25,547 nt of DNA from contig LRSL01000008.1 of assembly GCA_001563335.1 (NCBI GenBank), positions 1 to 25,547 of the forward strand, written 5' to 3'. Source of the DNA: Candidatus Thorarchaeota archaeon SMTZ1-45 (GTDB lineage Archaea; Asgardarchaeota; Thorarchaeia; Thorarchaeales; Thorarchaeaceae). Position numbers and translations under genes: made by a program. This document shows, one piece after another, positions 3,041 through 22,929 of this stretch. The notes under the pieces are model-generated. The model saw only the letters and a program-made list of their open reading frames with translations, did not search any database and was not told the DNA's origin. Numbering within the stretch: the stretch's first letter is position 1; each line of letters opens with the position of its first letter.

Positions 3041-4087
3041 TTGAAGCAAGTCATCAGCAAGTGTGGCAATATATGTTCTAGTTGTCCTTGGGGAGTATGG
3101 ATTCGAAAGAACCAGAGTCCTGATGAATGGGAGTCATTTGTTCGAGATGTGAAAAAATATCTAGGATATACACCGACGAAAAATCCCTGTCATGGCTGTC
3201 AGACTCCCACTGAAAATCTTGCAAAAGATGTTGGAGTACATAATTTTCTACGAGGTTGTTCTGCCCGAAAGTGTGCATTCCATAACAACTTCAAAAACTG
3301 TGCTTACTGTTCTATATACCCCTGTGATAAAATCAAGGTAATGAATCTCAATAATAGTCGGAAAGATGTCGAACAGCGTATTGGGGAACCTCTTCCTGAT
3401 GACAAATACCTGGCATATGTTCATATCTTTGAAGGAAAGAAAACACTTGACAAGATCCGATCAGGTCTTCAACCTGATCAGATTCATGCAGTCAAAAAGA
3501 TAGACCTGAAACCACCCTCAATCGTTCCCTTTCCAGAAGTAAAGATGACGACTAAGACCTCATCGTACAAATCACTTCATGATATACTCTCACGAATAAT
3601 TACTTCTGACCTTGGACTGATTAATACTGATACACTAGCTGTTCAAGATTTGCTTACGAGTCGTCGTAGAGTTCTCCTCAAACTCCTATGGATAGTTGCA
3701 AAGCATGGAATTGTAGAAGGTTCAAGATTATCAACTGACTCGATAACAATAAATAAACAAAAGAAGGGTACATCAGGTTTTCCAACAACAGAGTCTGGCT
3801 GGAGAAGATGGGTGGAGATTTTGGAGCAGGTTGGGATTAAAGGTGACATGGAGCTTGCTCCTCTCGATAAAGATGAACTAATCAGCCCAATAGGATGGTT
3901 AAGAGATAGGATTTCTGGATCAAATAATCCTGCTTGGTATCTGAAGATTGCACTTGATGAAGCATATGGTGGATCTAATGTTTTGAAAGACCTAGTTTCC
4001 TATGTAGAACTTCTCGATGGTGAATTTAGTACGCGTGCATTCACAAAATTCTCTAGAGCTGACATGAGTTTCTTAAAAGCCAAATAA
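3041..4087 (+). CDS. DUF3795-like Cys-rich metal-binding domain protein with an uncharacterised C-terminal extension
   Basis: N-terminal CGxxCxxCP...CHGC...GCxxRKC...NCAYCxxYPC pattern matches DUF3795. TTG start preceded by GGAG. Confidence 0.7.
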   Translation: MKQVISKCGNICSSCPWGVWIRKNQSPDEWESFVRDVKKYLGYTPTKNPCHGCQTPTENLAKDVGVHNFLRGCSARKCAFHNNFKNCAYCSIYPCDKIKVMNLNNSRKDVEQRIGEPLPDDKYLAYVHIFEGKKTLDKIRSGLQPDQIHAVKKIDLKPPSIVPFPEVKMTTKTSSYKSLHDILSRIITSDLGLINTDTLAVQDLLTSRRRVLLKLLWIVAKHGIVEGSRLSTDSITINKQKKGTSGFPTTESGWRRWVEILEQVGIKGDMELAPLDKDELISPIGWLRDRISGSNNPAWYLKIALDEAYGGSNVLKDLVSYVELLDGEFSTRAFTKFSRADMSFLKAK

Positions 4088-4095
4088 TAAATTAG

Positions 4096-4122
4096 AGGAG
4101 AGAAGCTACTGCACTCTCTCCT
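4096..4122. terminator. Hairpin between convergent genes (possible bidirectional terminator or processing site)
   Basis: AGGAGAGA (4096-4103) and TCTCTCCT (4115-4122) form a perfect 8-bp inverted repeat in the 55-nt gap between two stop codons. Confidence 0.4.
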
Positions 4123-4142
4123 TCCAACAAACAAAGAATTGT

Positions 4143-4736
4143 TTACAGATTCCAATTGTATCGAAGAGTCAAATCAACATCTACTGTCCAAACACTTGTC
4201 TTTGAACTAGCTTCAAACCAGATTACCCAGACATAGGTCGAAGCATAGTTTTGGAGATTGAAGAAACCTGTTGCAGTGTCGTAATAATCTCCTTGCTCAA
4301 CAAGGTATGAATCAAGGCCTGCCCAAGTTGGAATCGAATCAAATGTCGTTTGGTCTATTTCGTATATTGCAAAGTGTATTGTTACTGTAACGACATCCAC
4401 ACCTGTGTCATCAACACTAATATCGAAGTAGACATCTGGCGGTGTTGTTGTCTGTGTTTCAGAGCTGTAAACATCAAACTCATCATAATAGAAAGTTGAG
4501 AAAAGATCAACATCGATATTGTTGAAGCTTCCGAGAGACCTTTCAGAATAGGATGGTTCACCATTACCCCAATTAAAGAAGCTCCAGAAGCTACCAACGA
4601 AGACAATGGCAATGATAATAATTCCAATAATGAAAATGACACAAATTATCGCGCCCCATTTACAACAGTCTGATGACGTTGATTTTTTTGGAGCTTGCTG
4701 ATATGGTTCAGGACCTGGCATAGGGATTTCAGTCAT
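4143..4736 (-). CDS. Hypothetical single-pass membrane protein with an acidic beta-rich ectodomain
   Basis: Pro-rich N-terminal tail, CC pair, one very hydrophobic TM (GAIICVIFIIGIIIIAIVFVG), then a D/T/V/Y-rich alternating beta-pattern domain. Confidence 0.75.
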   Translation of the reverse strand: MTEIPMPGPEPYQQAPKKSTSSDCCKWGAIICVIFIIGIIIIAIVFVGSFWSFFNWGNGEPSYSERSLGSFNNIDVDLFSTFYYDEFDVYSSETQTTTPPDVYFDISVDDTGVDVVTVTIHFAIYEIDQTTFDSIPTWAGLDSYLVEQGDYYDTATGFFNLQNYASTYVWVIWFEASSKTSVWTVDVDLTLRYNWNL

Positions 4737-4849
4737 GGTTATCCACTCAAGAAATGATACTTCTGCTGCTTATTTTAATTTCTCCGAGATATAGACATCA
4801 ATCACTTCGATGGTTATAATTAAATTCAATCTAGCTCTTCAAGGTTTTT

Positions 4850-5533
4850 ATGTCAAGAAAAATAGTGGAACGAATCTTTGAGGAACTCCAAAAGCTTGGT
4901 AAGAGAGAGAGAAAGGAAAAGATTGCTGAATATTTGAAGACATCATTGTTGGATTTTATTGGAGTCGAACTTCCAGACATCCATAGGACAGTAAAACAAA
5001 ATATCAAAGGACTAAAAATGGAAGAACTTCCTGAGGTCATGAAGGGTCTTTGGGCAATTGAAACATTCGAGTCCCGGATAGCAGCTATTGATGTTTTGAA
5101 AGATTACGCAAAGAAAGGTTCTGTCGCAATAGCTTTGGATCTTGCTGACAAGTGGATTGATGATGCAGACACATGGGGCATTGTTGATCCACTATGTTCA
5201 CCTACAATTGGTTCGATGTTACTGCGTGACTCTAAAGTAGAAGAAACTTTGAGATTTTGGCGAGAATCTGATAACTTTTGGAGAAGGCGAGCCTCCGTTC
5301 TACCATTTCTCTATCTTACGCTGAAGACCCAATACAAACCTGAGTTCAATGATAAAATCCTTGAGGCTGTGTCTCCTCATATTTCCGATGAAGAATTCTT
5401 TGTTGGAAAAGCTGCTGGTTGGGTGCTTCGAGAACTCAGTAAAAGAGACCCTAGTATAGTAAGGAAGTATTTTGACAAGAACCGAGAGAGAATGACAAAA
5501 CTTGTGATAAGAGAGGGGTCAAAAAAACTCTGA
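4850..5533 (+). CDS. alkD: AlkD-like HEAT-repeat DNA alkylation repair glycosylase
   Basis: Family motifs TWGIVD, W..S.NFWRRRAS and EEFFVGKAAGWVLRELSK (the catalytic W/D/R/W set of AlkD); 227 aa. Confidence 0.88.
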   Translation: MSRKIVERIFEELQKLGKRERKEKIAEYLKTSLLDFIGVELPDIHRTVKQNIKGLKMEELPEVMKGLWAIETFESRIAAIDVLKDYAKKGSVAIALDLADKWIDDADTWGIVDPLCSPTIGSMLLRDSKVEETLRFWRESDNFWRRRASVLPFLYLTLKTQYKPEFNDKILEAVSPHISDEEFFVGKAAGWVLRELSKRDPSIVRKYFDKNRERMTKLVIREGSKKL

Positions 5534-5534
5534 A

Positions 5535-6755
5535 TCATAAACCTCTCAAGTGTTCTAGGATTCTGTTCTTCGCTGATTTCGGAGTGACATTATTGACTGA
5601 GATTTCCTCCACATTGTGAAACTCTCTAAACTTATGAATTCCTTTTGCCAGCCTATCTAAACCTGTTCTCTCCTTCCAAAAATCATCTTCAAGATACAAT
5701 GAGATTAACTCAAGTCGATTTTCATTTCGGTATACTTTCGCATCTGCCCTGGCAACTATATTAGATCCATCGAGAATAGGAAGAACATGATATCCATATT
5801 TTCGCTTGTCTGGAGGAACATAAGATTCCAGTTTGTAATCAAATTCCCAAATTTTGAGAGGGTAATGTCGCTCCCGGATGATATTATCAAATGGACTAAG
5901 AAATTTGACTGGATCTTCAGACAGATTTGCTTCCATCCTCTCCAAACTCTTAACCTTCTTACTCAACATGTAATAATGTTCTTTGATGCCATCAATCTTC
6001 ACTTGCTCCAAATTTCCCTCTCTAACAAGTGTATCCAGATGGCCTTCAATTGCAGATTTCTGATTATTCCATAGATACTCAGCTGGCCATCGTCCCAGAT
6101 ATGACCGGATGTCCAGAAAATTTCCCAATCCCAGAGAACCGAGAGTGGTTTCCACTACGAACCTAGCAAGCTCAGAGGTTTCCATTGGAGTTGAGTCGAT
6201 ATGAGATGGAAGTACCCTCTCTGTCAAATCATAGAACTTCTGAAAATTTGTCCTAAATGCTATCATAATCTGTCCTGTGTAATGGAGATACTGCATCGAC
6301 CTGCTCTCTAGAGACCCTCCCCACCCAAGATTCTCTCCTTTGAAATCTGAACTAGAAGTCAGTCCGTTCTTTTTGATATACTTGTAGACTTCCTGAATAG
6401 TTACTTTCATTTTCTCCCCGAATCTCTCATAGTATCCTTTTGTTGATGATCTATTGTGTTCCATTTTTCTCGCATAGAAAGGATAGGTTTCAATAGGAAC
6501 CAAACACAATGAATGTGACCAGTATTCGAAGAGCTTGCTTTTCTTCAGATCTTTCCATACGTCGCCTTCTCTATATTGTTCATATCTGTTGAAAGTAGTC
6601 AGGTTATGACTTCTTGATACTACAGACATTGTATCGATTTGTATACTATGAATCCTCTTGGCTACATTCATAACTGACCTTGAAGGCTTCTGCGTTCGAA
6701 GTCCTTGAACATCCAGAATGAATCTTCTTGCTATATTGGAAGAAATTTCTATCAT
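5535..6755 (-). CDS. ycaQ: YcaQ/AlkZ-family (HTH_42 winged-helix) crosslink-repair DNA glycosylase
   Basis: IQID catalytic QxD motif, VSRSH, LFEYWSH, YDLTERVLP, LSPFDNII, ESYVP..KRKYGY..LPIL; 406 aa. Confidence 0.9.
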   Translation of the reverse strand: MIEISSNIARRFILDVQGLRTQKPSRSVMNVAKRIHSIQIDTMSVVSRSHNLTTFNRYEQYREGDVWKDLKKSKLFEYWSHSLCLVPIETYPFYARKMEHNRSSTKGYYERFGEKMKVTIQEVYKYIKKNGLTSSSDFKGENLGWGGSLESRSMQYLHYTGQIMIAFRTNFQKFYDLTERVLPSHIDSTPMETSELARFVVETTLGSLGLGNFLDIRSYLGRWPAEYLWNNQKSAIEGHLDTLVREGNLEQVKIDGIKEHYYMLSKKVKSLERMEANLSEDPVKFLSPFDNIIRERHYPLKIWEFDYKLESYVPPDKRKYGYHVLPILDGSNIVARADAKVYRNENRLELISLYLEDDFWKERTGLDRLAKGIHKFREFHNVEEISVNNVTPKSAKNRILEHLRGL

Positions 6756-7082
6756 AGCAAACTTCTCACGGTGTTTTTCCTTTATTAAATGAACACAAAT
6801 CCTCGATCGAATTTCTCCTTCAAGCTAGATCTCATTTCTACTTTCATATTCCTTGAAACCTTCTTAGTAAATGAATACGCCTTCTCAAGGTATTCACATC
6901 AATAATCCACTAAAGATACGAGATATAGCAGATGATGTGAGAGAGGTAATACTAGTTTCACATCTAAAAATGATTTGAAATCGTCAAATTACTCTTCAAG
7001 AAGACTCCTAAGAATATCTTCTCAGGTGGACTAGATATGTGCACATATTTTCCAGAAGCGTTTTTAAAACCGATATGATGCG

Positions 7083-7334
7083 CTATTCACGAATTGTTGC
7101 TATCTCGAGGAGTTCAGGTGTAGGTTCTCCTCTCATGTTCTTTAGTAGACTTGTTGAAGCTCCCCGCTTTTTGAGCTCACGTTCCAATCTATCTATGCAG
7201 ACTGTGATATTGATTTGAGCGTTCTTCAAAGTAACAATGCTGAGACGTAGCTCATCATCTGTGCATGAGGACATCTTACGTGGGATGCAACATTTGAATG
7301 AGATTTTCCGTTCTTTGTCTTCATCAGTGTTCAA
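7083..7334 (-). CDS. Small hypothetical protein with a predicted coiled coil
   Basis: 83 aa; TTG start with GAGGTG RBS (reverse complement of 7344-7349); heptad-like segment ELRLSIVTLKNAQINITVCIDRLERELKKR. Confidence 0.55.
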   Translation of the reverse strand: MNTDEDKERKISFKCCIPRKMSSCTDDELRLSIVTLKNAQINITVCIDRLERELKKRGASTSLLKNMRGEPTPELLEIATIRE

Positions 7335-7349
7335 TGGCTCTTACACCTC

Positions 7350-7368
7350 TGGACATTGATAATGTCCA
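7350..7368. promoter_or_regulatory. Palindromic operator-like site
   Basis: TGGACATT-gat-AATGTCCA, a perfect 8-3-8 inverted repeat between a TATA-like ATTATAAT (about 7369-7377) and the RBS of the 83-aa ORF. Confidence 0.45.
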
Positions 7369-7607
7369 ATTATAATCAGTACTTTTGGATTAATTAGGTT
7401 ATCTTTTCAAAAGGTAAGGTTTGAAACTTCAAGATATACAAATGGACACACATTGAACCTCTTGATATACATAAATGTTACATTTTGAAAATGGCAGGCT
7501 GTGTTTGAAGCTTCTTCTTGATGCATTATACAAAACCTTTCAATCTAAAAGTCCTTTATTCAGAGATCTCTTGTTTACATTTTCGTTTGTCCAATAATCT
7601 ATCAAAC

Positions 7608-8138
7608 TTAATTTCCTACTTCCGAGTATCTACTACCCCCAATGAATATTTCATTAGCACAATTTCTGCATTTCAACCAGATATTGTCTCTAGCTGATTC
7701 GAATGATATCAAAACCTTGCAGTGTGGACATTCGAGTTTGTATTCCCTAAGTTCTCCAGCAGGAGCATATTGAGCAAAGTCTAAATGAAATAAATTCCAG
7801 AGAATCTCCATCATTTCTCCTTGAGAGAACACATCTAGAATGAACTCACTTATTTGATCCAATTCCTTCGAAGACACATCTCGATTCTCCAGGGCGCTTA
7901 AGATCAGGTCTGTTGTTTGTTTGTCCGCTTTGAATTTCATTGTGGCATATGAAATCCCCTCTTTTTCGAAAATACATTCAATAAAAAGACCATTTGGAAA
8001 TTCATAGGATCGGTTTATGTGCCCGTCATAAGGGTCATAATACTCCTTCGCAATGCATTTCTCAATCTTCATTTTTTTCCATAAGTATACGAGAGTTTCT
8101 GCTTGCCAATCCTCCATCGTGTTCAAGGCTCCCCTCAA
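7608..8138 (-). CDS. Hypothetical protein with a C-terminal zinc ribbon
   Basis: CPHC-x16-CRNC at the C-terminus. The true start is probably TTG 8126 or ATG 8117, because a GAGGGG RBS lies inside the first codons of the called ORF. Confidence 0.65.
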   Translation of the reverse strand: MRGALNTMEDWQAETLVYLWKKMKIEKCIAKEYYDPYDGHINRSYEFPNGLFIECIFEKEGISYATMKFKADKQTTDLILSALENRDVSSKELDQISEFILDVFSQGEMMEILWNLFHLDFAQYAPAGELREYKLECPHCKVLISFESARDNIWLKCRNCANEIFIGGSRYSEVGN

Positions 8139-8198
8139 ATTCTAAATTAGATTGAAAGAATATAATCTTAATTCACTGTTTTAAGAATAGGAGTTATC

Positions 8199-8726
8199 TT
8201 ATTGCCATTCCAATCTTTCGCAATCCCATTCTCTCAGAGTTCTGCTTAACTCACCAATATGCCACATGCTATGCCGCATTGTATAGAGAAACTTGGCTAA
8301 TCGAGATGGTTGCCATTTTGAAAAGCCATCGGTTTCAAACATATCATCATCTGTAAATGTCCTCAGTTTGTTTCTGAGTTTCATCTTTGTTTCCTCTAGG
8401 TATGCTATCATATCATCCTTCTTGATTCGTGATGCAGTTATTTGCGGACTTTCTTTTCTCCAATCGATTCCACCAATTCTTCCTCCCCATTTCATAACTT
8501 CTGGTTCGTCAGAACTATAGAATTCTACTGTTTGGATGATGTGAAAGATTCTTTCTGAGAAATACCAAATATTTTGCCCCTTTACTTCAGCCCATGGTTT
8601 ATCAATTACCTCTATACCCACATCCCATTTATCATCTGGAACATTCTCTATGGATTGACGCAACATCAACCAACTAGATTCGAATTGCTCTATTAGCTGC
8701 TCTATTATTCGCTTCTCACTACTCAA
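8199..8726 (-). CDS. DinB/YfiT-like four-helix-bundle protein
   Basis: N-terminal L...I..VPDDKW, IFHII and C-terminal HSMWHIGEL give the His triad of the DinB superfamily; GAGGT RBS. Confidence 0.8.
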   Translation of the reverse strand: MSSEKRIIEQLIEQFESSWLMLRQSIENVPDDKWDVGIEVIDKPWAEVKGQNIWYFSERIFHIIQTVEFYSSDEPEVMKWGGRIGGIDWRKESPQITASRIKKDDMIAYLEETKMKLRNKLRTFTDDDMFETDGFSKWQPSRLAKFLYTMRHSMWHIGELSRTLREWDCERLEWQ

Positions 8727-8807
8727 TTCTCATACCTCGCAAATAATCTCAGAGTGAAATTCAAGGTTCTATATGTTCTCCTTTTTGAAAAATAGTTGGA
8801 ATCCTAT

Positions 8808-9845
8808 CTAGAATCGACTTCTCCTTTTGGGATATGGTGTGAAGTGCTTTCTTTGTTTGGTGCTGAACCATTCAGTTGAAGCATCAATATTCCTTAATGA
8901 CCGAAGAATATCAAATGAAACCCAACGACTAACCTCTGGGTGTGAAGAGTATTCCCAGAGTCCATACTGACCTTGCTGTTCTAGAATCCATTTCACAAGC
9001 TCATCAACTCTAGGGTCTTCTCGATTAGCACCTACCCTTGAACAGATGTCTAGAACTAATGATGGATCGAATTTAGCATGATATGTGAGACCACCTCGAT
9101 GTGGCTCTACACCAATATATCTGGCGACATTGAATCCAAGATTGTTGCGGTCTCTTGTTTCTCTTCCAAGAAGATGGTCTAACGCTTCTCGTGCTTCAGT
9201 GCTATTGTTACGTTTTGGATGATATGCGAAACAAAGCAGCGACTGAGTTGTATTGGTCCTGCAACCCCATTGAGAGTATGGCAGTCTTCTGTATCCTGCA
9301 ATTCCAACAAAGACATCTTTGACCTTCCCTGCGGGCCATGTTCCATCTTCAAGGCGTACATTCAATAACCACTCAAACGCCCGCTCTGAACGAGAATCTT
9401 CCCCATATCCACACATCACTAATCCAAGAAGAGGAATTGAAGTTTGAACTGGAGACATAGTATACGGTCCTCGAGTATACTCATAATCAGCAACACGCTC
9501 AGGTAAAGGCCAAGAACCATCCTTCCTCTGTTTGGAAAAGATGTACTCTACTCCCCTTTTTATAGCTGGATGGTCATTGTTTAGTCCCAAATACCCTAAA
9601 CGCATAAGGGCTGCAGTTGTGGCTCGAATTGCCCCACCAATAGTATATCCTGCTTGATCTAGTTCTCTCCATTTTCCGCTCTCTTTCTGTAGATTGAGTA
9701 GTGATGTGATAATTGGATCTTCTTCTCTGAGTTTCACAAGTTCTTTTGCCTCGTTATCATCTGAATTACGACCAAGTAGCTCAGTCAACACCAAATATCG
9801 AAGACTTGGAGACCTGTCTGCTAACAAAAGTGGTACCCAAGTCAT
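8808..9845 (-). CDS. Prenyltransferase/squalene-hopene-cyclase (QW) repeat alpha-alpha toroid protein, function unknown
   Basis: Repeated QW-like motifs: LLNLQKESGKW, IFSKQRKDGSW, LLNVRLEDGTW, ILEQQGQYGLW. No DxDD cyclase motif is visible. The start overlaps the uvrA stop (ATGA at 9842-9845). Confidence 0.8.
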   Translation of the reverse strand: MTWVPLLLADRSPSLRYLVLTELLGRNSDDNEAKELVKLREEDPIITSLLNLQKESGKWRELDQAGYTIGGAIRATTAALMRLGYLGLNNDHPAIKRGVEYIFSKQRKDGSWPLPERVADYEYTRGPYTMSPVQTSIPLLGLVMCGYGEDSRSERAFEWLLNVRLEDGTWPAGKVKDVFVGIAGYRRLPYSQWGCRTNTTQSLLCFAYHPKRNNSTEAREALDHLLGRETRDRNNLGFNVARYIGVEPHRGGLTYHAKFDPSLVLDICSRVGANREDPRVDELVKWILEQQGQYGLWEYSSHPEVSRWVSFDILRSLRNIDASTEWFSTKQRKHFTPYPKRRSRF

Positions 9846-12800
9846 ATTCTTCCCTCCAGGATCCCTTTGATGTATGGGGATGTTGGTGTATCCATTTTGG
9901 AGATTTCAATTGGATTGCCTTCTGCAATTACTAGACCACCTTCTGGCCCACCCTTTGGTCCGAGCTCAATTAGCCAATCACATGCAGCTAAAACATGGGG
10001 GTGGTGTTCAATCACAAATACACTGTTCCCCTCAGACACCAGCTGATGCAAGACTTGAACTAATCGATTGACATCTTCAAGATGCTGACCTACAGTTGGT
10101 TCATCAAGAATGAAGAGCGTCCCTCGTTGTGATTTCTTGGTTAGTTCTTGAGCTATTTTGAGTCTTTGAATCTCACCGCCTGATAGTGTCCAACTTGGCT
10201 GTCTAAGGACAAGGTAGTCTAATCCAACATCCAATGCAGGACGAAGTTTGGTTTCAACTCTCTCTTCGTCTTTGAATAGCTCATAGATCTCTTTCAGAGT
10301 AAGATTATTCAATTCTGGGAGGGAATAGCCCTTAACCATCACATCCCAAGCTTCAGGGGATCGACCACTTCCAGCACATACTTCACACTCTGTGTAAACT
10401 GTCGGTAGGAACCCAAGATCTGTCCGCAACCTCCCAGCTCCCTCGCAGATTGAGCAGGGTTGACTTAACTTCTTCTTGTCAAGATCAAGTGAGATTGCAT
10501 CCTCGCTTTCAGCGTAAACATCAACAAGGACCCTTAGAATATCTAGCGCTTGACCAGGTGAGCGAATACCCTTTCGACCTTGATCGAGAACTATGACTCT
10601 ATTGGGTTCATTCCTTATGCTGTCATATTCTTCTGGCTCAGTTTCCTCATATGCTACACTCGTTGTGAATTTCTTGGGGGCTATTGCACGAGCTAGAGTA
10701 TCAATAAGCAACGTACTCTTCCCAGATCCTGATACTCCGCAAAAACCAACGAGAACACCTAGAGGTATCTCAAGAGTTACATTTTGTAGATTATTGCCTC
10801 TTGCTCCAACGATCTTCATCCATGCAATGGGTGTTCTTGGAGATGATGCGAAACTGAACCTTCTATCTCCTTTCAACCACTTTGCAGTTATTGAATCGGT
10901 CTTTGCTACAGCAGATGGACTTCCCTTAGCCACAATTCTACCTCCTTCTGTTCCTGCAACTGGACCCATGTCAATCAGCTCATCCGCAGCTTTAATGATT
11001 GCTAGATCATGTTCAACAACAATTGGAGTGTTCCCCTCAATCTTGAGCTCCTCAAGAGCATCCAAGAGCCCGTCCACCTCTGAGGGATGCATCCCGCGTG
11101 ATGGTTCATCTAATAGAATAGTCAGAGAAGTCATACCACTTCCTAACAAGCTGGATAAGATGATTCTCTGTGCTTCCCCTGCTGAAAGCGATAGTGCTGA
11201 TTGATTTAGATGAACATAACCAAGTCCAACCTGTTCGAGAAATCTTACACGTTTCAATGCAGTTTGCAAATTGTCTTGGGTGAAATATACATCTGAGTCT
11301 GGAACCTTGAGCTTTAGGAGAATCTTTCTCAATTCTGAAATTGTACAGTTTTTCAGCTGATGTACATTCTGACCCAAGATTTTGAATGCTAGATAATCTT
11401 CCTTAAGACCCGTACCATTACAACATTCGCAGACAATGCGGTTACTGAAAGTCTGACCTACATCCCAATCATTTACAAGTCTATAGAATCCCCACCAAGC
11501 TTGCTTACCAGAAACCTTTGTCCTCTTTCCTCTGCGAGTTCCAAGATATGAGAATTCAAGCTTTTCAGAATCTCCATACAGGAAGGCTCTCTTTCCTTCC
11601 TCTGAGATGTCCTTCCAAGGTGTTGTTTGAGGATCAAATCCATACTTATTACCAAGAGCTATAAGCAATCCTGCAGCCGCACTAGTTGGCTCACAGAAGT
11701 ATTTTCCGGGATAATAACCTGGAGAATACATCGCTCCTAGGCATAGTGGTTTTTCAGGTGCAATAATGAGTTTCTCTGGTGCAGGAATGTTCTTTGTTCC
11801 AACTCCACTACACTCGCTACAAGCAGCATAATATGTGGTCGCGGAGAAAGCACGGGGACTGACTAAGGGTTTTGTTGTTCCACATTTTGGGCAACTCCAC
11901 CTTTCATTCCGCTCCATTCGGGTTCCACAATCAAGACATAGTCTTTCTGCGATTGCCGCGTATAGGACATTGATATGATTGGAAATCTCTGTGACAGTTC
12001 CTACTTTGGACCGACTTTCATAAACTGCCCACCATCCAGCGCCTCTCCTTCGTCTTGAAGAAATCGCTATTGATACTCCCAGACCACTCACGCTGTCTAC
12101 TGGGGCTTCGGGTCCTTCACTTGTTCCCTGGCGCTCATATACTGAAAGCGACTCCAAGAACCTTCTCTCTGCCTCTGCTTGCAATACATCTCTAATGAGT
12201 GATGATTTGCCTGATCCTGAAATCCCTGTGACCACTGTCAGCTTTGCTTTCTTGATATCTACACTCACCGACTTCAAATTGTTGGCTCTTGCGTTCTTTA
12301 TAGAAATCCTATCCGCCCGAATGTTTGTCTTCCCAGGTTGTTTTCGAGGTTTTACTTTCTTCTCATTTTCTAGTGCCTGTGCAGTTTGTGATACTTTGAC
12401 AGCATAGATTCCTGTTGGTGGTCCACAGTATAATACCTCACCACCATCAGGACCTGCTGAGGGACCAAGGTCAATGAGCCAGTCAGCAGATTTTATGATG
12501 TCAGTATTATGTTCAATAACTACAATTGTTGCTCCTTCTTTGACAAGTCTATCAAGAACCGAGAGCAGACCAAACAAATCGTATGGATGAAGACCTGTTG
12601 AAGGTTCATCTAGAATAAGGAGTTTAGATGATAGTGATTTCTTCCCCAAGTATTTGGCCAATTTTATCCTCTGTGCCTCACCCCCAGAAAGACTCGGAGA
12701 GCTCTGACCTAACTTCAGATAACCAAGTCCAATGGTGACAAGCGCATCTAGAATACTCTCTACCGACTTTCTCTTGCTCTCTGAGAGACGTGTATCTTGT

Positions 12801-14731
12801 GTAAGAATCGAATGGACTTCAGAGATTGATAAGTTGTAGAAATCTGCTATGGATAAATCTCGTTCTTTGAATTTAATCCGAGATTGAAGCACCTCTTCAT
12901 TATACCTCTGACCATCACAATCTGAACATGTAATCCAAATTGATGGAAGATAACGCATCTTGACTTCAACAGCTCCCATCCCTTGGCATGTGGGACAAGC
13001 TCCTTCAGGTCGATTGAACGAGAAGTGTGAAGCCGAGAGACCAGTTTCAGAAGCATAGAGGTCTCTAATGATGTCAGAGAGTTTTGTATACGTACCTGGA
13101 TTTGACCTGGGATTCTTGCCTATAGGTTTCTGATCGACCATTACTGGTCTGAGCTTCTTTCCCTCAATTGATTTGCATCCAACTGGTTTACCAGTTTCAA
13201 GTGTGGGCACAAGTACGTGTTGAACTAGTGTACTCTTCCCAGACCCGCTGACTCCTGTGATTACAGTAAGTCTACTCACTGGCATGTCTACAGAAATCTC
13301 TTTCAGATTGTGCTTGGTTGCACCACTAATCCTGATGAACTCATCAGGTTCTGGGTGAGACTTCAGAGTGGGTACATGTTCTCTCAGACTGAAATAGTGA
13401 CCTGTTTTTGTGTCAGCTTTCCAAAGCCCCTGGGGCGTACCAGTGAAGACAATCTTCCCTCCATTGTCACCTGCTTCTGGTCCTAGATCAATCACTCTGT
13501 CTGCATGAGACGCAGCAACTCTGTCATGTTCAACAAAAACAACCGGACCAAGCAGCTTTCTAAATGAAGGCATTAGCTTTGCAACATCTGCTGGGTGTTG
13601 TCCAATTGTTGGTTCATCCAATACATGTACAATATCTTCGAGTCTGCTAGTCAAAGAAATTGCTAATCGTACTCTCTGCGATTCTCCTCGAGACAGTGAT
13701 GGTGAAGACCTGTCCAGTTGAATATATCCAAGTCCAACAGTCATGAGTGCTTCAATTCTTCGGGAAATCTCAGACTTCAACCTCTTTGCAGTCGTAGGGA
13801 GTTGGACATTATTGAAGATGTCATGAACTTCTGAAACTGTCAATGTAAGCAACTCTGGAAAGGACCTTCCCTCCCATAGAACATTAGCAGCCATTTGATG
13901 TAATCCTGAGTGGTTGCATTTTTCGCAACCTTTGCCCTCACAATGAATACACTTCATCCCAAAATGCTTAGATTCAACATTGCTAAACCAAGTCCCACAT
14001 TGAGAACATACACTACTCAAAGATAGGTTTCTAGATGTATCATTATAACTAACCAATACAGAGTCAGAACCCAATTCATATGCCTTTCTAATCGAATCCC
14101 GAACTTCTGAGGTTCTTGATTTTGAATCAAATCTACCCAATAGAATAGAGATATCATGTGGTTCTTCCGAAATCAGGTCCTTCCTGTCCCATGGAACTCC
14201 ATCAACTAAAACCCTCTCAGATCCAAATTCATCTACGAGTAGTTCCAAGAGCATTTTGTGGCTCCCTTTCACAGATTGAACGAGAGATGAAGCGACCTCA
14301 ACTCTTGTCCTTCTCAATTTCTCATTGATAAGCGATATTATCTCATCCTCAGTCAAGACTTGGAGACTTGCGCCACAGGTCACACAGTAACGAATACCAA
14401 ATCTTGCATAAAGGAGTCTGAAGAAGGGATGCAAACCGGATGCTGATGCAAGCGTTGATAGAGGATTCAAATTGAGAAGGTTCTGTTCCACTGCTATTGT
14501 GGGGCCTATGCCTGTGAGAGATCGGACATTGGCTGGAGGCATGCGAACCCTAGAACTGCTTGATCTAAAGACATCCAAAAACCTGCGACGAGCCTCATGA
14601 TACATCGTATCAAAAACAAGTGATGTCTTTCCCGATCCACTTATGCCTGTCACAACAGTTAGACCATCAGCTATGTCCACATCCACTGATTTGAGATTGT
14701 TCTCACGGGCACCTCGGATTCGGATATCCAT
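9842..14731 (-). CDS. uvrA: Double-length (tandem-fused) UvrA-family excinuclease ABC ATPase with four ABC ATPase domains
   Basis: Four GAxxNNL-type starts, four Walker A motifs (GISGSGKT, GVSGSGKS, GISGSGKS, GVSGSGKS), four signatures (LSRGESQ, LSGGEAQ, LSAGEAQ, LSGGEIQ), four LDEP motifs and UvrA Zn-finger CxxC pairs. The second unit starts near aa 808 (nt about 12310). Confidence 0.95.
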   Translation of the reverse strand: MDIRIRGARENNLKSVDVDIADGLTVVTGISGSGKTSLVFDTMYHEARRRFLDVFRSSSSRVRMPPANVRSLTGIGPTIAVEQNLLNLNPLSTLASASGLHPFFRLLYARFGIRYCVTCGASLQVLTEDEIISLINEKLRRTRVEVASSLVQSVKGSHKMLLELLVDEFGSERVLVDGVPWDRKDLISEEPHDISILLGRFDSKSRTSEVRDSIRKAYELGSDSVLVSYNDTSRNLSLSSVCSQCGTWFSNVESKHFGMKCIHCEGKGCEKCNHSGLHQMAANVLWEGRSFPELLTLTVSEVHDIFNNVQLPTTAKRLKSEISRRIEALMTVGLGYIQLDRSSPSLSRGESQRVRLAISLTSRLEDIVHVLDEPTIGQHPADVAKLMPSFRKLLGPVVFVEHDRVAASHADRVIDLGPEAGDNGGKIVFTGTPQGLWKADTKTGHYFSLREHVPTLKSHPEPDEFIRISGATKHNLKEISVDMPVSRLTVITGVSGSGKSTLVQHVLVPTLETGKPVGCKSIEGKKLRPVMVDQKPIGKNPRSNPGTYTKLSDIIRDLYASETGLSASHFSFNRPEGACPTCQGMGAVEVKMRYLPSIWITCSDCDGQRYNEEVLQSRIKFKERDLSIADFYNLSISEVHSILTQDTRLSESKRKSVESILDALVTIGLGYLKLGQSSPSLSGGEAQRIKLAKYLGKKSLSSKLLILDEPSTGLHPYDLFGLLSVLDRLVKEGATIVVIEHNTDIIKSADWLIDLGPSAGPDGGEVLYCGPPTGIYAVKVSQTAQALENEKKVKPRKQPGKTNIRADRISIKNARANNLKSVSVDIKKAKLTVVTGISGSGKSSLIRDVLQAEAERRFLESLSVYERQGTSEGPEAPVDSVSGLGVSIAISSRRRRGAGWWAVYESRSKVGTVTEISNHINVLYAAIAERLCLDCGTRMERNERWSCPKCGTTKPLVSPRAFSATTYYAACSECSGVGTKNIPAPEKLIIAPEKPLCLGAMYSPGYYPGKYFCEPTSAAAGLLIALGNKYGFDPQTTPWKDISEEGKRAFLYGDSEKLEFSYLGTRRGKRTKVSGKQAWWGFYRLVNDWDVGQTFSNRIVCECCNGTGLKEDYLAFKILGQNVHQLKNCTISELRKILLKLKVPDSDVYFTQDNLQTALKRVRFLEQVGLGYVHLNQSALSLSAGEAQRIILSSLLGSGMTSLTILLDEPSRGMHPSEVDGLLDALEELKIEGNTPIVVEHDLAIIKAADELIDMGPVAGTEGGRIVAKGSPSAVAKTDSITAKWLKGDRRFSFASSPRTPIAWMKIVGARGNNLQNVTLEIPLGVLVGFCGVSGSGKSTLLIDTLARAIAPKKFTTSVAYEETEPEEYDSIRNEPNRVIVLDQGRKGIRSPGQALDILRVLVDVYAESEDAISLDLDKKKLSQPCSICEGAGRLRTDLGFLPTVYTECEVCAGSGRSPEAWDVMVKGYSLPELNNLTLKEIYELFKDEERVETKLRPALDVGLDYLVLRQPSWTLSGGEIQRLKIAQELTKKSQRGTLFILDEPTVGQHLEDVNRLVQVLHQLVSEGNSVFVIEHHPHVLAACDWLIELGPKGGPEGGLVIAEGNPIEISKMDTPTSPYIKGILEGRI

Positions 14732-14869
14732 ACCCTCACAGCACTTGAGGTGATAGTTGTTCTTGAGTATATTTCAATCTCTCGGAAACCAAGAGTGTAC
14801 ATCAGAATTAATTGTGACCAGAAACCTATTCATAATCAGTCACAAATGAATTAGTGAGTTTGAAGACCA

Positions 14870-15568
14870 ATGGAAGAAAAGGAATTCGTTGCTTTCATGA
14901 AGAAGGAAAGAAAGAGTGATAGCACTATAGCTGCATGCCTTAATGACATTATGGAGTTTGAAACTTATCTTGAACAGAAAGGAACATCTCTAGTCAAAGC
15001 TATACCTTCTGACCTAGAGTCATTCGCTCAAGACTACAAAAACAAGAAACGAACATCCAAGCTCATGTGGACCCTCAGTCATTTCTTTGAATTCATTGAT
15101 AACAAGGAGCTATTATTTACAGCAAGAAAAATCAGAAAGGGCAAGATTAAGGCAACAAGGAAACCTTTCAAGATCAAGGATTTTAGAGGTATAAACTCTG
15201 AACATGCAATCAAACTAGCTGAAATTGGTATTGATAATGTTGCTAAGATGCTCGAGGTTGGAAAGACCTCTGAGATGAGACTAAAATTATCCAAGCAAAC
15301 TGGTCTAAACATCAAGATAATTGAGGAAATTGTGAAGCTCTCTGATCTTGCACGAATACAAGGTCTCAAGGGCATTCGTGCTCGCTTATATTATAATGCA
15401 GGCTTTGATTTCTTGGAGAAACTACGTCAGACTTCACCTGAAGAGCTACTTCAAATCACAAGAGAGTTTGTTGAGAGGACTGGCTTTGATGGAATCGCTC
15501 CACTGCCAAAAGAAGCAAAAGGAGCGATTGAAGCAGCAAAGAAACTACCAGACATAATTGAATGGTAA
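14870..15568 (+). CDS. DUF4332-like helix-hairpin-helix protein with an N-terminal integrase SAM-like domain
   Basis: N-terminal KS.STIAA.LNDI.EFE.YL resembles the tyrosine-recombinase core-binding domain. C-terminal tandem HhH segments FKIKDFRGINSEHAIKLAEIGI and SDLARIQGLKGIRARLYYNAGF. No catalytic recombinase domain. Confidence 0.7.
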   Translation: MEEKEFVAFMKKERKSDSTIAACLNDIMEFETYLEQKGTSLVKAIPSDLESFAQDYKNKKRTSKLMWTLSHFFEFIDNKELLFTARKIRKGKIKATRKPFKIKDFRGINSEHAIKLAEIGIDNVAKMLEVGKTSEMRLKLSKQTGLNIKIIEEIVKLSDLARIQGLKGIRARLYYNAGFDFLEKLRQTSPEELLQITREFVERTGFDGIAPLPKEAKGAIEAAKKLPDIIEW

Positions 15569-15580
15569 TCTCTGGAAACA

Positions 15581-16003
15581 TCATTTTGCTGTACTTCTTG
15601 CTATGATTGTTAGAACAAGTCCTAGCGCCCAAATTGAGTGCATTATTAGCCATCCCAAAACAAGAAGACCTAACCATCCCACAGACATATAGACCCATAG
15701 AATTACCAGAATGAAACTGATTAATCCAAACCCTGCTGCTAGCGCAATGATAAACTTACCAAGTCTTACATGAGAGGTTGTTAGTAACCAACCCCCTAGT
15801 ATCACTGCATATCCACCAGCCCAAGCAATAAGACCGAGAACAAGCAATACTATATCGATGATGAAATAAAAAGGTGCGAGTGCAGGAATCAAATGTACTG
15901 CACCATAGATTAGTAATATCGTTCGTATACCATGATCATATCCCGCTAGAATAAGGAACAACCCTCCAATAATACAGAGTGCAAATGGTGTCTGATTTTT
16001 CAC
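15581..16003 (-). CDS. Hypothetical small multi-pass membrane protein (about 4-5 TM)
   Basis: 140 aa, almost entirely hydrophobic and Gly-rich; GTG start with GAGGGAG upstream. Confidence 0.75.
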   Translation of the reverse strand: MKNQTPFALCIIGGLFLILAGYDHGIRTILLIYGAVHLIPALAPFYFIIDIVLLVLGLIAWAGGYAVILGGWLLTTSHVRLGKFIIALAAGFGLISFILVILWVYMSVGWLGLLVLGWLIMHSIWALGLVLTIIARSTAK

Positions 16004-16122
16004 AAAGCTCCCTCTTGTAATTTGTCAAAAAACCTCCTTTTTACACCACCGGATATTCTTTGTTGGAAAGAATCATTAAGACCAATCGCTTGCTTTCTTG
16101 CCATTTCATGGTGGGAAACTTG

Positions 16123-16701
16123 ATGACACCAAGTCCAAAGGCAATAGCTATAGAAACTCTTGAAATCGCAGAATCGAATTTGCTAAATTCATTCATGGGT
16201 GTTCGTCCAGACGAAATCCATGAACAAGCGCATCCCGAGTTCAACTCTATCATATGGATCTTGGGACACTGCTTCACTCATTTCCATTTAGTCCTTTGCA
16301 GCAAATGTCAAGAAACTGAAATATTCACTGAGGATATAGCACACTATTTCAGATTTGGTACAACGAAAGAGGAGATTTCAAAGACTGGTCCTCCTATGAC
16401 ATTTGCCAAGCTCATCGACGAGTATCTCAAGATCTCAGCTTCAGGTTTCTCCTATCTTCAATCAATCGATGATGAGGACCTTGAGAAGGTTATATTTCCA
16501 GAGTATGGTGAGAATCTATTGCAGAGTATCCAACGAATAGGACTGCATTATATGGGTCATGTAGGACAGATTGTTTTGATTCGCAGGGCTTTGGGAAATC
16601 CTGGTGCCACCTTCGTTGGAGGAATTTCTTCAATCGGTCGTTCGAAGATACGAGAAAAATGGGATAAATGGTGGTCTGAGAACAGAAACGATTTTGAGTA
16701 A
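16123..16701 (+). CDS. DinB_2-family protein
   Basis: NSIIWILGH and HYMGHVGQI..IRRALG motifs. The ORF track starts at 16060; ATG 16123 with a GGTGG RBS is more plausible. Confidence 0.82.
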   Translation: MTPSPKAIAIETLEIAESNLLNSFMGVRPDEIHEQAHPEFNSIIWILGHCFTHFHLVLCSKCQETEIFTEDIAHYFRFGTTKEEISKTGPPMTFAKLIDEYLKISASGFSYLQSIDDEDLEKVIFPEYGENLLQSIQRIGLHYMGHVGQIVLIRRALGNPGATFVGGISSIGRSKIREKWDKWWSENRNDFE

Positions 16702-16731
16702 TCACTCACTGGTGAGAGAAAGTGAGTGATT
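16700..16731 (+). terminator. Strong hairpin directly at the stop codon of the DinB_2 gene
   Basis: AATCACTCACT (16700-16710) and AGTGAGTGATT (16721-16731) form a perfect 11-bp stem with a 10-nt loop. Confidence 0.5.
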
Positions 16732-16875
16732 GAGATTGTTAGATGATTTTTCGAATCTCTATCAGTAACCTTATTTTGTGTAATGCAATCGTTTTGTTTG
16801 TAGTCAAAAGACACAGGAGGACTTCTGACTTCAAACCAAATAACTGCGGGACCAAATGCTTTGGAGTAAACCACC

Positions 16876-17463
16876 ATGCGCGACCAAGATGATGGCAGCA
16901 AAATCATGAAAGCTGTTCTCATAGGTGATGGGGCTGTTGGTAAGACAAGCATACGCCGCAATTACCTTGGTGAGGATTTTATTGAGGGGCATCTAGCAAC
17001 AATAGGTGTAGACCTAGCTACAAAACGGGTTTTGTTTGGGCAAGATATTGTCAAGTTCATAATTTGGGATCTTGCCGGACAACCAACATTTGAGAAAGTC
17101 CGAGGACACTACTATAGCGGGTGTAATGGGATACTCTTGGTATACTCAGTAGTTGATAGAGAGTCCTTTGATAATGCTAGTAAATGGTTGGTTGAAGCCT
17201 ACAAGAATATGGGTCCCTTACCACCTACTGTAATCATTGGGAATAAGATTGACCTTCGACAGAGCCTGGACAAGACTAAATATGTAACGACAGAAGAAGG
17301 CGAAGCATTCACAAAGTACTTCATAGAGAAACTTGAGGTTCCTGCAATATTCAGAGAAACCTCAGCAAAGACTGGTGCAAATATCCAAGACACTTTCCAA
17401 GAACTTCTACGAATGATGAGTGAGGCTGAAACAAAGAAGGAAAGAGACATTTTCATGGGCTAA
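16876..17463 (+). CDS. Rab-like small GTPase (Ras superfamily)
   Basis: G1 GDGAVGKT, G2/RabF1-like TIGVD, G3 WDLAGQ, RabF4-like YYSG, G4 NKID, G5 ETSAK. No C-terminal Cys. Confidence 0.93.
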   Translation: MRDQDDGSKIMKAVLIGDGAVGKTSIRRNYLGEDFIEGHLATIGVDLATKRVLFGQDIVKFIIWDLAGQPTFEKVRGHYYSGCNGILLVYSVVDRESFDNASKWLVEAYKNMGPLPPTVIIGNKIDLRQSLDKTKYVTTEEGEAFTKYFIEKLEVPAIFRETSAKTGANIQDTFQELLRMMSEAETKKERDIFMG

Positions 17464-17554
17464 GTTTCTAGAAGGCTTCTGTTGCATCATAATTGTTATT
17501 AAGCCAGAATTTCATTAACTATTGTTAAAGGACTAGTGAGATTGAGGATCTATA

Positions 17555-22371: not shown

Positions 22372-22929
22372 CTAGAATTTCTCAGCTAGATAAGCTCCAG
22401 CTGCATCAAACATCTCAAAGACACCTTCACTTGTTTTTGCAGAAACTTCAAAGATTCTGGCCTTGTATTCAGCTGCGAATTCTTCAGCATCCTCTTGACT
22501 GACTCCCATTCCCTCAATTCGTTCATCTATCTTATTTCCAACTAGAAAAATACTGCACCCAGGGACTGCGTTCTGCAATCTGGAAATCCAATCTCGCAAT
22601 TTGTGAAGTGTAAAGATACGGCTCACATCATAAACTGCAATTCCAAGTTTTGAGCCAATAAAATAATCTGATATGACCTCTTGGAAACGGGGTTGCCCTC
22701 CAAGATCCCATATCAACAAAGTGATGTCTGTACCCCGTACACGCACCTTCTTGGTTGCAAAGTTAACTCCTATGGTCATCTTCATTTTTTGATCGAATCT
22801 ATCTTCTGTGTATCTAACAGCCAAGCTAGTCTTTCCTACACCACCCTCACCCAAGAGTACTGTCTTGAAGACTGGCATCCTGTAACTCAAGCTAATAGCT
22901 CCTTTGTCTGTGGTTCTTATCCCCCACAT
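22372..22929 (-). CDS. Rab-like small GTPase (second copy)
   Basis: GEGGVGKT, TIGVNF, WDLGGQ, NKID, EVSAK; no C-terminal Cys. The true start is probably TTG 22890 or ATG 22878 (AAGGAG RBS inside the called ORF). Confidence 0.92.
   Translation of the reverse strand: MWGIRTTDKGAISLSYRMPVFKTVLLGEGGVGKTSLAVRYTEDRFDQKMKMTIGVNFATKKVRVRGTDITLLIWDLGGQPRFQEVISDYFIGSKLGIAVYDVSRIFTLHKLRDWISRLQNAVPGCSIFLVGNKIDERIEGMGVSQEDAEEFAAEYKARIFEVSAKTSEGVFEMFDAAGAYLAEKF

Follow-up and report, generated by a model that had tools for sequence, protein, structure and literature searches.

Do several DNA repair genes that lie close together in an Asgard archaeon form one system of defence against genotoxic agents? The question is raised by positions 4,850 to 16,701 of the window, by which we mean the first 25,547 nucleotides of contig LRSL01000008.1 from Candidatus Thorarchaeota archaeon SMTZ1-45 (assembly GCA_001563335.1). 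In this segment two glycosylase genes, a gene for a double UvrA and several small genes fall within about 12 kb, and an earlier note, made from the letters of the DNA, had presented it as a clustered genotoxin-defence neighbourhood. The genome analysed (G000; 3.5 Mb, 88% complete, with the window as its contig C8) was compared with related genomes, and we read the stretch, with a probability of roughly 0.6, as a mosaic of three separately inherited repair units and not as one genotoxin-defence system. What the window holds is a neighbourhood of repair genes whose functional linkage is partial and which falls short of a demonstrated genotoxin-defence island.

Gene identities were taken from an open reading frame (ORF) listing and from Pfam scans of the 23 ORFs of the window (protein lengths in amino acids, aa):

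4850..5533, + strand: AlkD-like HEAT-repeat alkylpurine DNA glycosylase, 227 aa (PF08713, E 9.3e-49)
5535..6755, - strand: YcaQ-like (QxD-type) glycosylase of the AlkZ/HTH_42 family, 406 aa (PF06224, E 3.2e-38)
7083..7334, - strand: small conserved ORF, 83 aa, no Pfam family, with orthologues at the same position in the genus
7608..8138, - strand: near-orphan protein, 176 aa, whose C terminus carries a CxxC...CxxC zinc ribbon (sub-threshold zinc-ribbon matches)
8199..8726, - strand: DinB-superfamily four-helix protein, 175 aa (orthologues match DinB_2)
8808..9845, - strand: alpha/alpha-toroid protein, 345 aa (SQHop_cyclase_C, E 1.5e-12)
9842..14731, - strand: asymmetric tandem-fused UvrA, 1629 aa, with four ABC ATPase sites and six zinc modules
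14870..15568, + strand: protein with an integrase-SAM-like N-domain and a DUF4332 helix-hairpin-helix region, 232 aa (PF14229, E 4.4e-16; PF02899, E 7.4e-6)
15581..16003, - strand: polytopic membrane protein, 140 aa (hydrophobic sequence, no Pfam family)
16060..16701, + strand: DinB_2-family protein, 213 aa as listed (PF12867, E 5.1e-8)

Every gene and family that the earlier note had named is present, as seen from the ORFs, the Pfam matches and the DinB orthologues, and it was also right that uvrB and uvrC are absent from the window, according to the Pfam scan (canonical copies are found on contig C76), and that the mixed orientations are not those of a single operon. The two glycosylase genes are convergent and one base apart, and the DUF4332 gene is divergent from the double-UvrA gene. 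The toroid gene, which was absent from the gene list of that note, overlaps with its start the UvrA stop by 4 bases, and the first DinB-fold gene (8199-8726) lies 81 bases further downstream on the same strand.

Part of the evidence for our reading comes from synteny within the genus. The double UvrA is found in nine of the 24 other genomes of the genus (five copies of full length, with 74-79% identity, and four cut by contig ends), and the toroid follows it in all eight genus loci that contain the 3' end of the UvrA gene. Two kinds of empty site were identified. In four genomes (G009, G024, G003 and G012) a DUF3795 or ABC gene is followed by AlkD, AlkZ, Ras and CopA, and the space that separates AlkZ from Ras is just 145-201 bases; in two others (G014 and G016) the gap from the DinB-like gene to the DUF4332 gene measures 143 and 462 bases, respectively, and holds nothing. 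The UvrA-toroid cassette is a clean, discrete two-gene indel within the genus. The surroundings vary as well: G020 carries DinB_2, the membrane protein and the DinB-like gene, and further on AlkZ and AlkD, with neither DUF4332 nor the cassette, and in G004 and G013 the cassette lies in another place, between the AlkD-adjacent membrane protein and DUF3795, with AlkZ 9 kb away in the former and on another contig in the latter. From these empty sites and rearrangements we distinguish three kinds of parts: the backbone, which includes the two glycosylase genes, the cassette of two genes, which varies, and a number of small genes that vary too.

DNA contigs from four runs of four studies, one of them perhaps the source sample, cover positions 4000-17500 at an identity of at least 95%, with single contigs spanning 4000-9734 and 13423-16853, so that the gene arrangement is no obvious assembly artefact. 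A look for RNA runs over 4850-14731 listed none. One contig joint, in what is possibly the source run, skips 194 bases (13032 to 13227), with a shorter side of 20 letters.

Beyond the genus, the cassette travels without most of its neighbours. Among the best 80 of 150 loci retrieved with the toroid alignment from a scan of one genome per species, a double UvrA, full-length or partial, lies just upstream of the toroid in 75; in four of the other five the toroid is at the edge of the locus, and the fifth (L065) truly lacks UvrA. This last locus, from Chloroflexota, has its toroid at 10001-11029 and no double UvrA within 10 kb upstream, and shortened or broken UvrA genes stand beside the toroid in L050, L064 (337 aa), L078 (612 aa), L104 and L108. 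When the 1059 ORFs of these loci were clustered all against all, no genes but the two of the cassette occurred in more than 11 loci; next came a generic ABC ATPase (11 loci) and an AlkZ-like protein (10 loci, including the window). In the 75 loci outside the genus, 236 ORFs stand no more than two genes from the cassette, and 199 of these were scanned (the other 37 being mostly near-duplicates or members of an Anaerolineae clade annotated through exemplars): the only repair genes among those scanned encode AlkZ (L045), Fpg/Nei (L047) and UvdE (L080), and neither these 199 ORFs nor a scan of the 75 loci with the window's proteins yielded AlkD, DinB or DUF4332.

A tree of the toroid proteins (76 rows, quick method, unrooted) contains 28 Asgard rows (12 Thorarchaeota, 7 Promethearchaeota, the window's own and a few others), 8 from Bathyarchaeia, 41 from Chloroflexota and single bins of Proteobacteria, Aminicenantes and Patescibacteria. 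Identity to the window's toroid is about 47-58% across these taxa, close kin excepted. Thorarchaeota form a clade of 18 rows (support 97), and Heimdall/Hod sequences and three separate groups of Bathyarchaeia fall among bacterial ones, which indicates transfer between domains, in a direction that the unrooted tree does not give. In L045, from another Thorarchaeota lineage, AlkZ comes directly after the toroid, and five Anaerolineae loci share a co-directional array of a 308-aa protein without assigned function, an AlkZ-like protein, a methyltransferase, a metallophosphoesterase, the double UvrA and the toroid (the methyltransferase is missing in L086, and L064 has a cut-off copy). Since these Anaerolineae loci form one clade of the toroid tree, the AlkZ-cassette link amounts to one bacterial event plus the Thorarchaeota case or cases.

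The double UvrA matches TIGR00630 with 1273 bits in four stretches. Its N-terminal half corresponds to positions 2-284 and 403-921 of the profile, keeping the UvrB-binding domain (PF17760, E 2.2e-8) and having lost the insertion domain; its C-terminal half corresponds to positions 1-127 and 248-923, keeping the insertion domain and lacking the UvrB-binding domain. This asymmetry was established from genome-level profile matches and from an alignment of both halves with three canonical UvrA proteins. Across 29 sequences of the family, the four sets of Walker A, Walker B, signature and H-loop motifs and the 24 cysteines of the six zinc modules are invariant or nearly so, and the conserved residues in which the family differs from canonical UvrA concentrate in the C-half insertion domain (23 at positions 951-1100).

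The UvrA classes compared here do not accommodate this protein. Class I (TIGR00630/NF001503) comprises proteins of about 940 aa with both domains, and here 1629 aa are divided into halves each of which is short of one domain; in the genome search the TIGR00630 cut-off is passed by the summed copies only, and by no single stretch. With two ABC ATPase sites and three zinc modules, each half nevertheless has the full set of a class I UvrA unit. The duplicated UvrA of the Chlamydia type (NF001885) was rejected as well, at 835.7 bits against a cut-off of 3054. A duplicated UvrA termed 'class III' also figures in older literature. Class IIa proteins are defined as being without the UvrB-binding domain and the first zinc finger (PMC9328131). 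Like the class IIa proteins DrrC and Ecm16, the window's protein is an extra UvrA paralogue, and its C half has no UvrB-binding domain; unlike them, it is tandem-fused, keeps the UvrB-binding domain and has lost the insertion domain in its N half, holds the cysteines of the first zinc module in both halves, is always paired with a toroid gene and lies in no visible biosynthetic cluster. Class IIa was rejected on the N-half domain and the zinc module.

A further point of comparison is the canonical class I UvrA dimer and its asymmetric reaction intermediate. In the Mycobacterium tuberculosis UvrA2-UvrB1-DNA complex, studied by cryo-electron microscopy, the UvrB-bound protomer is reported to release its insertion domain and the other protomer to retain a 'recognition' insertion domain (PMC11985968). 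The fused protein shares its domains and motifs with that dimer and likewise counts four ATPase sites in a functional unit; its N half resembles the UvrB-bound protomer and its C half the 'recognition' protomer. It differs in that the asymmetry is fixed in the gene instead of transient, in that only one UvrB could be bound, and in the presence of an additional, seemingly obligatory partner protein. Judged by its domain composition, the fused UvrA looks like the UvrA2-UvrB1 state written into one gene.

Canonical nucleotide excision genes are present elsewhere in the same genome:

G000:C76:27450-40568 (loci L001, L003, L004 and L128): canonical uvr cluster, with uvrB, then two tandem full-length uvrA ORFs of 1002 aa and 953 aa, and uvrC about 3.7 kb further on

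With these copies present, the double UvrA is an additional paralogue and not the sole UvrA of this archaeon. The tandem uvrA pair of the canonical cluster recurs in several genomes of the genus. Long UvrA-like ORFs of 1917 and 2412 aa were also noticed in another Asgard family (G028:C24:97740-102230, locus L030), with halves 33-42% identical to the window's double UvrA and no toroid match in 20 kb.

For the toroid protein, an AlphaFold (AF2) model built from 25 sequences reached a predicted local distance difference test score (pLDDT) of 86.9, and its best fold matches are squalene cyclase (Z 14.6) and the complement C5 TED (Z 14.1), followed by glycoside hydrolases and LanC. Fold searches and the protein atlas point to the generic alpha/alpha-toroid class only, from which no function follows. 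Class II terpene cyclases carry a DxDD motif, and the thioester domains of complement C3 and alpha-2-macroglobulin a CGEQ motif. A squalene-hopene type of terpene cyclase was rejected, as DxDD occurs in three of the 25 toroids, at non-aligned places, and not in the window's protein; so was a complement/alpha-2-macroglobulin thioester domain, with CGEQ in none of the 25 despite the Z of 14.1. The family has its own conserved features, a WGCR motif and an invariant His209. A prediction of the complex between the toroid and residues 805-1300 of the fused UvrA, made with alignments and without controls, gave a score of 0.00 and is uninformative on binding.

The two glycosylases are ordinary members of known families, already annotated publicly. 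The AlkD-like protein matches PF08713 over profile positions 3-213 of 213 (166.4 bits, cut-off 21) and aligns with the solved Bacillus cereus AlkD structures (3jy1/3bvs) at E 1e-19. The catalytic Trp-Asp-Trp of B. cereus AlkD, which we take to be W109, D113 and W187, is kept in this alignment, where 'dtWgivD' stands over 'wWdsvD' and 'aaGWvlre' over 'aiGWvlre'. The gene is present in 20 of the 24 other genomes of the genus, mostly as a single copy, and because of this near-universal distribution its product looks like a housekeeping enzyme and not like a resistance protein of the YtkR2 type. With AlkD and YtkR2 it shares the full-length family match and the aligned catalytic residues; it differs from them in its distance from B. 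cereus AlkD and in its position outside any visible biosynthetic cluster.

The YcaQ-like protein matches PF06224 with 132.6 bits (cut-off 25.9), and 9zd6 is a solved relative (E 3.6e-30). Its catalytic motif is 'IQID' (Q39-I-D41), with Q39 and D41 invariant in the 11 AlkZ-family sequences aligned, including those beside the cassette in Anaerolineae. According to a survey of the family, YcaQ-like (YQL) proteins have QxD with an aliphatic x, are conserved and always lie outside biosynthetic clusters, and AlkZ-like (AZL) self-resistance enzymes have (Q/H)xQ and are often found inside clusters (PMC9040887). The self-resistance type was rejected for the window's glycosylase, whose QID is neither QxQ nor HxQ, and since QxD is found in 11 of 11 aligned proteins, the enzyme is, by its motif, assigned to the housekeeping YcaQ-like type. 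It resembles E. coli YcaQ and the YQL subfamily in the PF06224 match, the invariant QxD and a place outside any visible biosynthetic cluster, and differs in being archaeal, often paired with AlkD and represented by two copies in most genomes of the genus (the second copy in the present genome is at G000:C10:27384-28352). Among its best 120 relatives, all those with a named source are Asgard, and their NCBI name is already 'YcaQ family DNA glycosylase'.

Two types of AlkD-adjacent AlkZ were observed within the genus, one about 70% identical to the window's protein (G005 and G020) and one about 51% identical (G018, G002 and G008; loci compared: L023, L025, L031 and L024, L126). Two such different types in one position suggest that a paralogue has taken over there, or that the gene was exchanged with the second copy in the genome. 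Other Asgard genomes have giant ORFs of 1411-2349 aa, along which as many as four partial PF06224 matches follow one another (G036:C1:1072670-1076440; G029:C35:19770-22097; G031:C45:5192-6655; G028:C39), which may encode multi-domain proteins of repeated winged-helix modules.

Pairing of the two glycosylase families reaches beyond the genus. AlkZ-like proteins were found in 107 and AlkD-like proteins in 133 of the 201 Asgard genomes sampled (E 1e-10 or better), to be compared with the 12 archaeal members of the AlkZ family counted in the survey of 2022 (PMC9040887). Among the matches listed (150 of 171 and 150 of 156), both families occur together in 79 genomes, and in 16 of them the two genes lie within 5 kb of each other: seven of this genus, seven of genus g12, which belongs to another family, one of g16 and one of g42. 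The g12 pair that was aligned (from G035) is 23% and 30% identical to the window's pair. As kin are not independent, these are about four events and not sixteen, which by a rough expectation of about 0.4 (below one) genomes is well above chance. The side-by-side position of AlkD and YcaQ-like genes across Asgard archaea suggests that their products cooperate on alkylation and crosslink damage.

The remaining genes of the segment, that is, those for the two DinB-fold proteins, the DUF4332 protein, the membrane protein and the zinc-ribbon protein, are genus-restricted. The metal-binding triad of the DinB superfamily (PF12867/PF05163), as in YfiT, consists of one histidine followed by HxxxH. In the protein encoded at 8199-8726, H62, H152 and H156 are invariant across nine sequences; its own Pfam score for DinB is 15.5 bits against a cut-off of 23, and six of nine orthologues match DinB_2 (best E 1.5e-10), so that these matches and the three invariant histidines make the DinB family clear. 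The protein encoded at 16060-16701 matches DinB_2 directly (33.9 bits, cut-off 24.8), with H70, H163 and H167 invariant in five sequences, and its true start is likely M22, at about 16123, where the orthologues begin. The two were rejected as close paralogues, with a profile-profile probability of 2.8%. The DUF4332 gene occurs in 15 of the 24 other genomes of the genus, several of them without a detected double UvrA, and the membrane protein (15581-16003) has orthologues of 74-79% identity in the genus. The zinc-ribbon protein has two homologues (75% and 69% identity) among 5.8 billion proteins and no match in the related loci compared. The 83-aa ORF has orthologues of 63-72% identity at the same position in G018, G005 and G008 (L037, L036 and L034).

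On the right, the variable region ends at a Ras-family small GTPase gene (16876-17463, E 6e-41) with 82-93% identity across the genus; a second Ras-family gene lies at 22372-22929 (E 2e-39). Beside the first, here and across the genus, stays the gene of a copper-type P1B ATPase (17555-20365, 936 aa) with an N-terminal HMA and two C-terminal YHS domains. On the left, a DUF3795 gene (3041-4087, 348 aa) is AlkD-adjacent across the genus, and is also found near the cassette in G004, G013 and G035 and on a distant Thorarchaeota chromosome (L047:3072-4139).

A PADLOC scan for defence systems matched UvrA alone, as a generic ABC ATPase (e.g. mad3, 357 bits, 8 stretches), and gave no match for the nine other proteins of the cluster and no multi-gene match to one anti-phage system. 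The best 8-mer of the window, AGATTGAA, was considered as a shared operator. It is found in four of the eight intergenic regions searched (4825-4832, 7539-7546, 8149-8156 and 14773-14780), at inconsistent distances from the gene starts, and was rejected as evidence of a regulon, being probably a chance occurrence.

Could the whole set nevertheless have been co-selected as a defence against DNA-reactive natural products, taken up from the environment or self-made, with AlkD and AlkZ clearing bulky adducts and crosslinks, a UvrA removing intercalators or adducts in the manner of DrrC and Ecm16, and DinB-fold proteins detoxifying the agents by thiol transfer? We consider this unlikely, even if all the families required are there, AlkZ-like genes adjoin the cassette in two lineages outside the genus and AlkD is near the cassette in the rearranged loci. 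The DinB_2 protein does match the mycothiol transferase profile NF047843, although faintly (20.1 bits, cut-off 170), and multidrug-type ABC exporters flank the cassette in L059, L078 and L084, with a glutathione S-transferase-like gene in L076; ABC exporters are, however, common genes, and three loci carry little weight. The best precedent is the hedamycin (hed) cluster of Streptomyces griseoruber, in which an AlkZ-family glycosylase and a UvrA-like protein, HedH4 and HedH11, are encoded nearby (PMC9040887). HedH4 has (Q/H)xQ, is toxin-specific and lies in a biosynthetic cluster, whereas the window's glycosylase is of the QxD subfamily, that found outside such clusters, and among the 23 ORFs of the window a general Pfam scan, run with no dedicated cluster finder, revealed no biosynthetic families. 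The window's UvrA, a fused double protein with a toroid partner, also retains what class IIa proteins are without. The analogy with Streptomyces self-resistance drawn in the earlier note is weak because both the glycosylase motif and the UvrA class differ. Its central proposal of one clustered defence system is not supported, as the full set is not kept outside one genus and its units were gained and lost independently. Above the genus level, the synteny comparison found the genes largely scattered, as the earlier note had said they would be if its proposal were wrong; G035, a genome of another family, for instance carries its AlkD-AlkZ pair on C48 and its cassette on C2/C21. What stands of the linkage proposed there are two pairs, AlkD-AlkZ and AlkZ-cassette, which recur beyond the genus.

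Pure chance, by which unrelated repair genes would have come near each other in one genus, to no selective or functional effect, and the window would have been picked for its clustered look, appears quite improbable. The restriction of the full set to a single genus, whose members should share gene order by descent, agrees with it, as does the fact that AlkD and AlkZ are not within 5 kb of each other in 63 of the 79 Asgard genomes listed with both, nor in 12 of 13 genomes from other genera of the window's own family. The motif search is equally in line with it, as AGATTGAA occurs 7 times in the window against 3.1 expected, a number reached in 3 of 100 shuffles, and no convincing shared motif emerged; by a rough estimate, three repair genes among eleven are not rare across a large scan. 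Against it, AlkD-AlkZ adjacency is found in four genera, with sequences as divergent as those of G035, and the AlkZ-cassette link arose at least twice. In the genomes compared, linkage is non-random for the sub-pairs only.

The mosaic of separately inherited units has points to answer as well, and some data speak against it by hinting at a real functional tie between the units. The rearranged genomes G004 and G013 still keep AlkD, the cassette and the membrane protein/DinB_2 pair as neighbours. An AlkZ-like gene adjoins the cassette three times over (in this genus, in L045 and in one Anaerolineae clade), a gene for Fpg/Nei lies directly upstream of the double UvrA on a Thorarchaeota chromosome (L047:4151-5014), and one for a UvdE UV-endonuclease lies downstream of the toroid on a Hodarchaeota contig (L080:3568-4464), so that the repair enzymes next to the cassette differ from lineage to lineage. 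Finally, as regards the recruitment of UvrB proposed below, conservation in the double-UvrA family is lowest in the UvrB-binding domain of the N half, with 6-8 positions per 50 residues conserved at a level of at least 90%.

On our preferred reading, the mosaic, all three units are concerned, or plausibly concerned, with damaged DNA. The first unit would be the convergent glycosylase pair, set in a genus backbone of DUF3795, membrane protein, AlkD, AlkZ, Ras GTPase and copper ATPase genes. Going by family membership and retained catalytic motifs, the AlkD-like enzyme would excise cationic N3- and N7-alkylpurines, bulky ones included, without base flipping, and the YcaQ-like enzyme would unhook N7-guanine interstrand crosslinks and remove bulky N7 adducts, both leaving abasic sites for ordinary base-excision repair. 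The second unit would be the mobile cassette of a single-chain UvrA 'dimer' and the overlapping toroid gene. The fused UvrA is most likely an ATP-driven sensor of helix-distorting lesions, which would recruit one UvrB from the uvr cluster on C76 and hand the DNA over to it, mimicking UvrA2-UvrB1, and the toroid would be a tightly coupled accessory subunit in putative contact with UvrA. The third unit would consist of the genus-restricted small genes, with presumed roles only, which are in place when the cassette is missing. The proximity of the units would follow from the place of the cassette, which sits in, or has disappeared from, a part of the backbone where the glycosylase pair was already present, and mild selection may favour keeping repair genes close.

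A more integrated arrangement can be imagined, in which the YcaQ-like glycosylase and the UvrA-toroid cassette would carry out two steps of one undescribed pathway for crosslinks or bulky N7 adducts; we regard it as rather doubtful. The glycosylase would unhook the lesion, the single-chain UvrA would recognise the unhooked remnant or the abasic intermediate, its fixed asymmetry would load exactly one UvrB on the correct strand, and the toroid would bind the excised adduct or the lesion itself. Sediment archaea, both Asgard and Bathyarchaeia, would then have exchanged the cassette with Anaerolineae in adapting to the alkylating chemistry of anoxic sediments, and the AlkD, DinB-fold and helix-hairpin-helix genes of the genus would be local add-ons.

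Neither a fused double UvrA with a toroid partner nor an Asgard repair cluster is described in the open-access literature searched. The claim of the earlier note that nothing of the kind had been described in Asgard archaea holds, within that literature, for the cluster and not for its AlkZ-like genes, which are common there and already named by NCBI. New here are the empty-site evidence for a two-gene indel, the recurrent AlkZ neighbour and the AlkD-AlkZ pairing across Asgard genera, and the asymmetric UvrA with its toroid is a variant without a published description in the same literature.

The analysis corrects an attractive picture that went beyond the data; Asgard archaea show no conserved 'genotoxin island'. 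There is instead a cassette that has moved between archaea and bacteria of the same habitats, and its adjacency to AlkZ in two lineages outside the genus provides a hypothesis that can be tested at the bench. For excision repair, where the question is how a symmetric UvrA dimer comes to load a single UvrB on the strand that carries the damage, an asymmetric UvrA that occurs in nature as one chain, together with its toroid partner, may offer a tool in which the state of interest is fixed.

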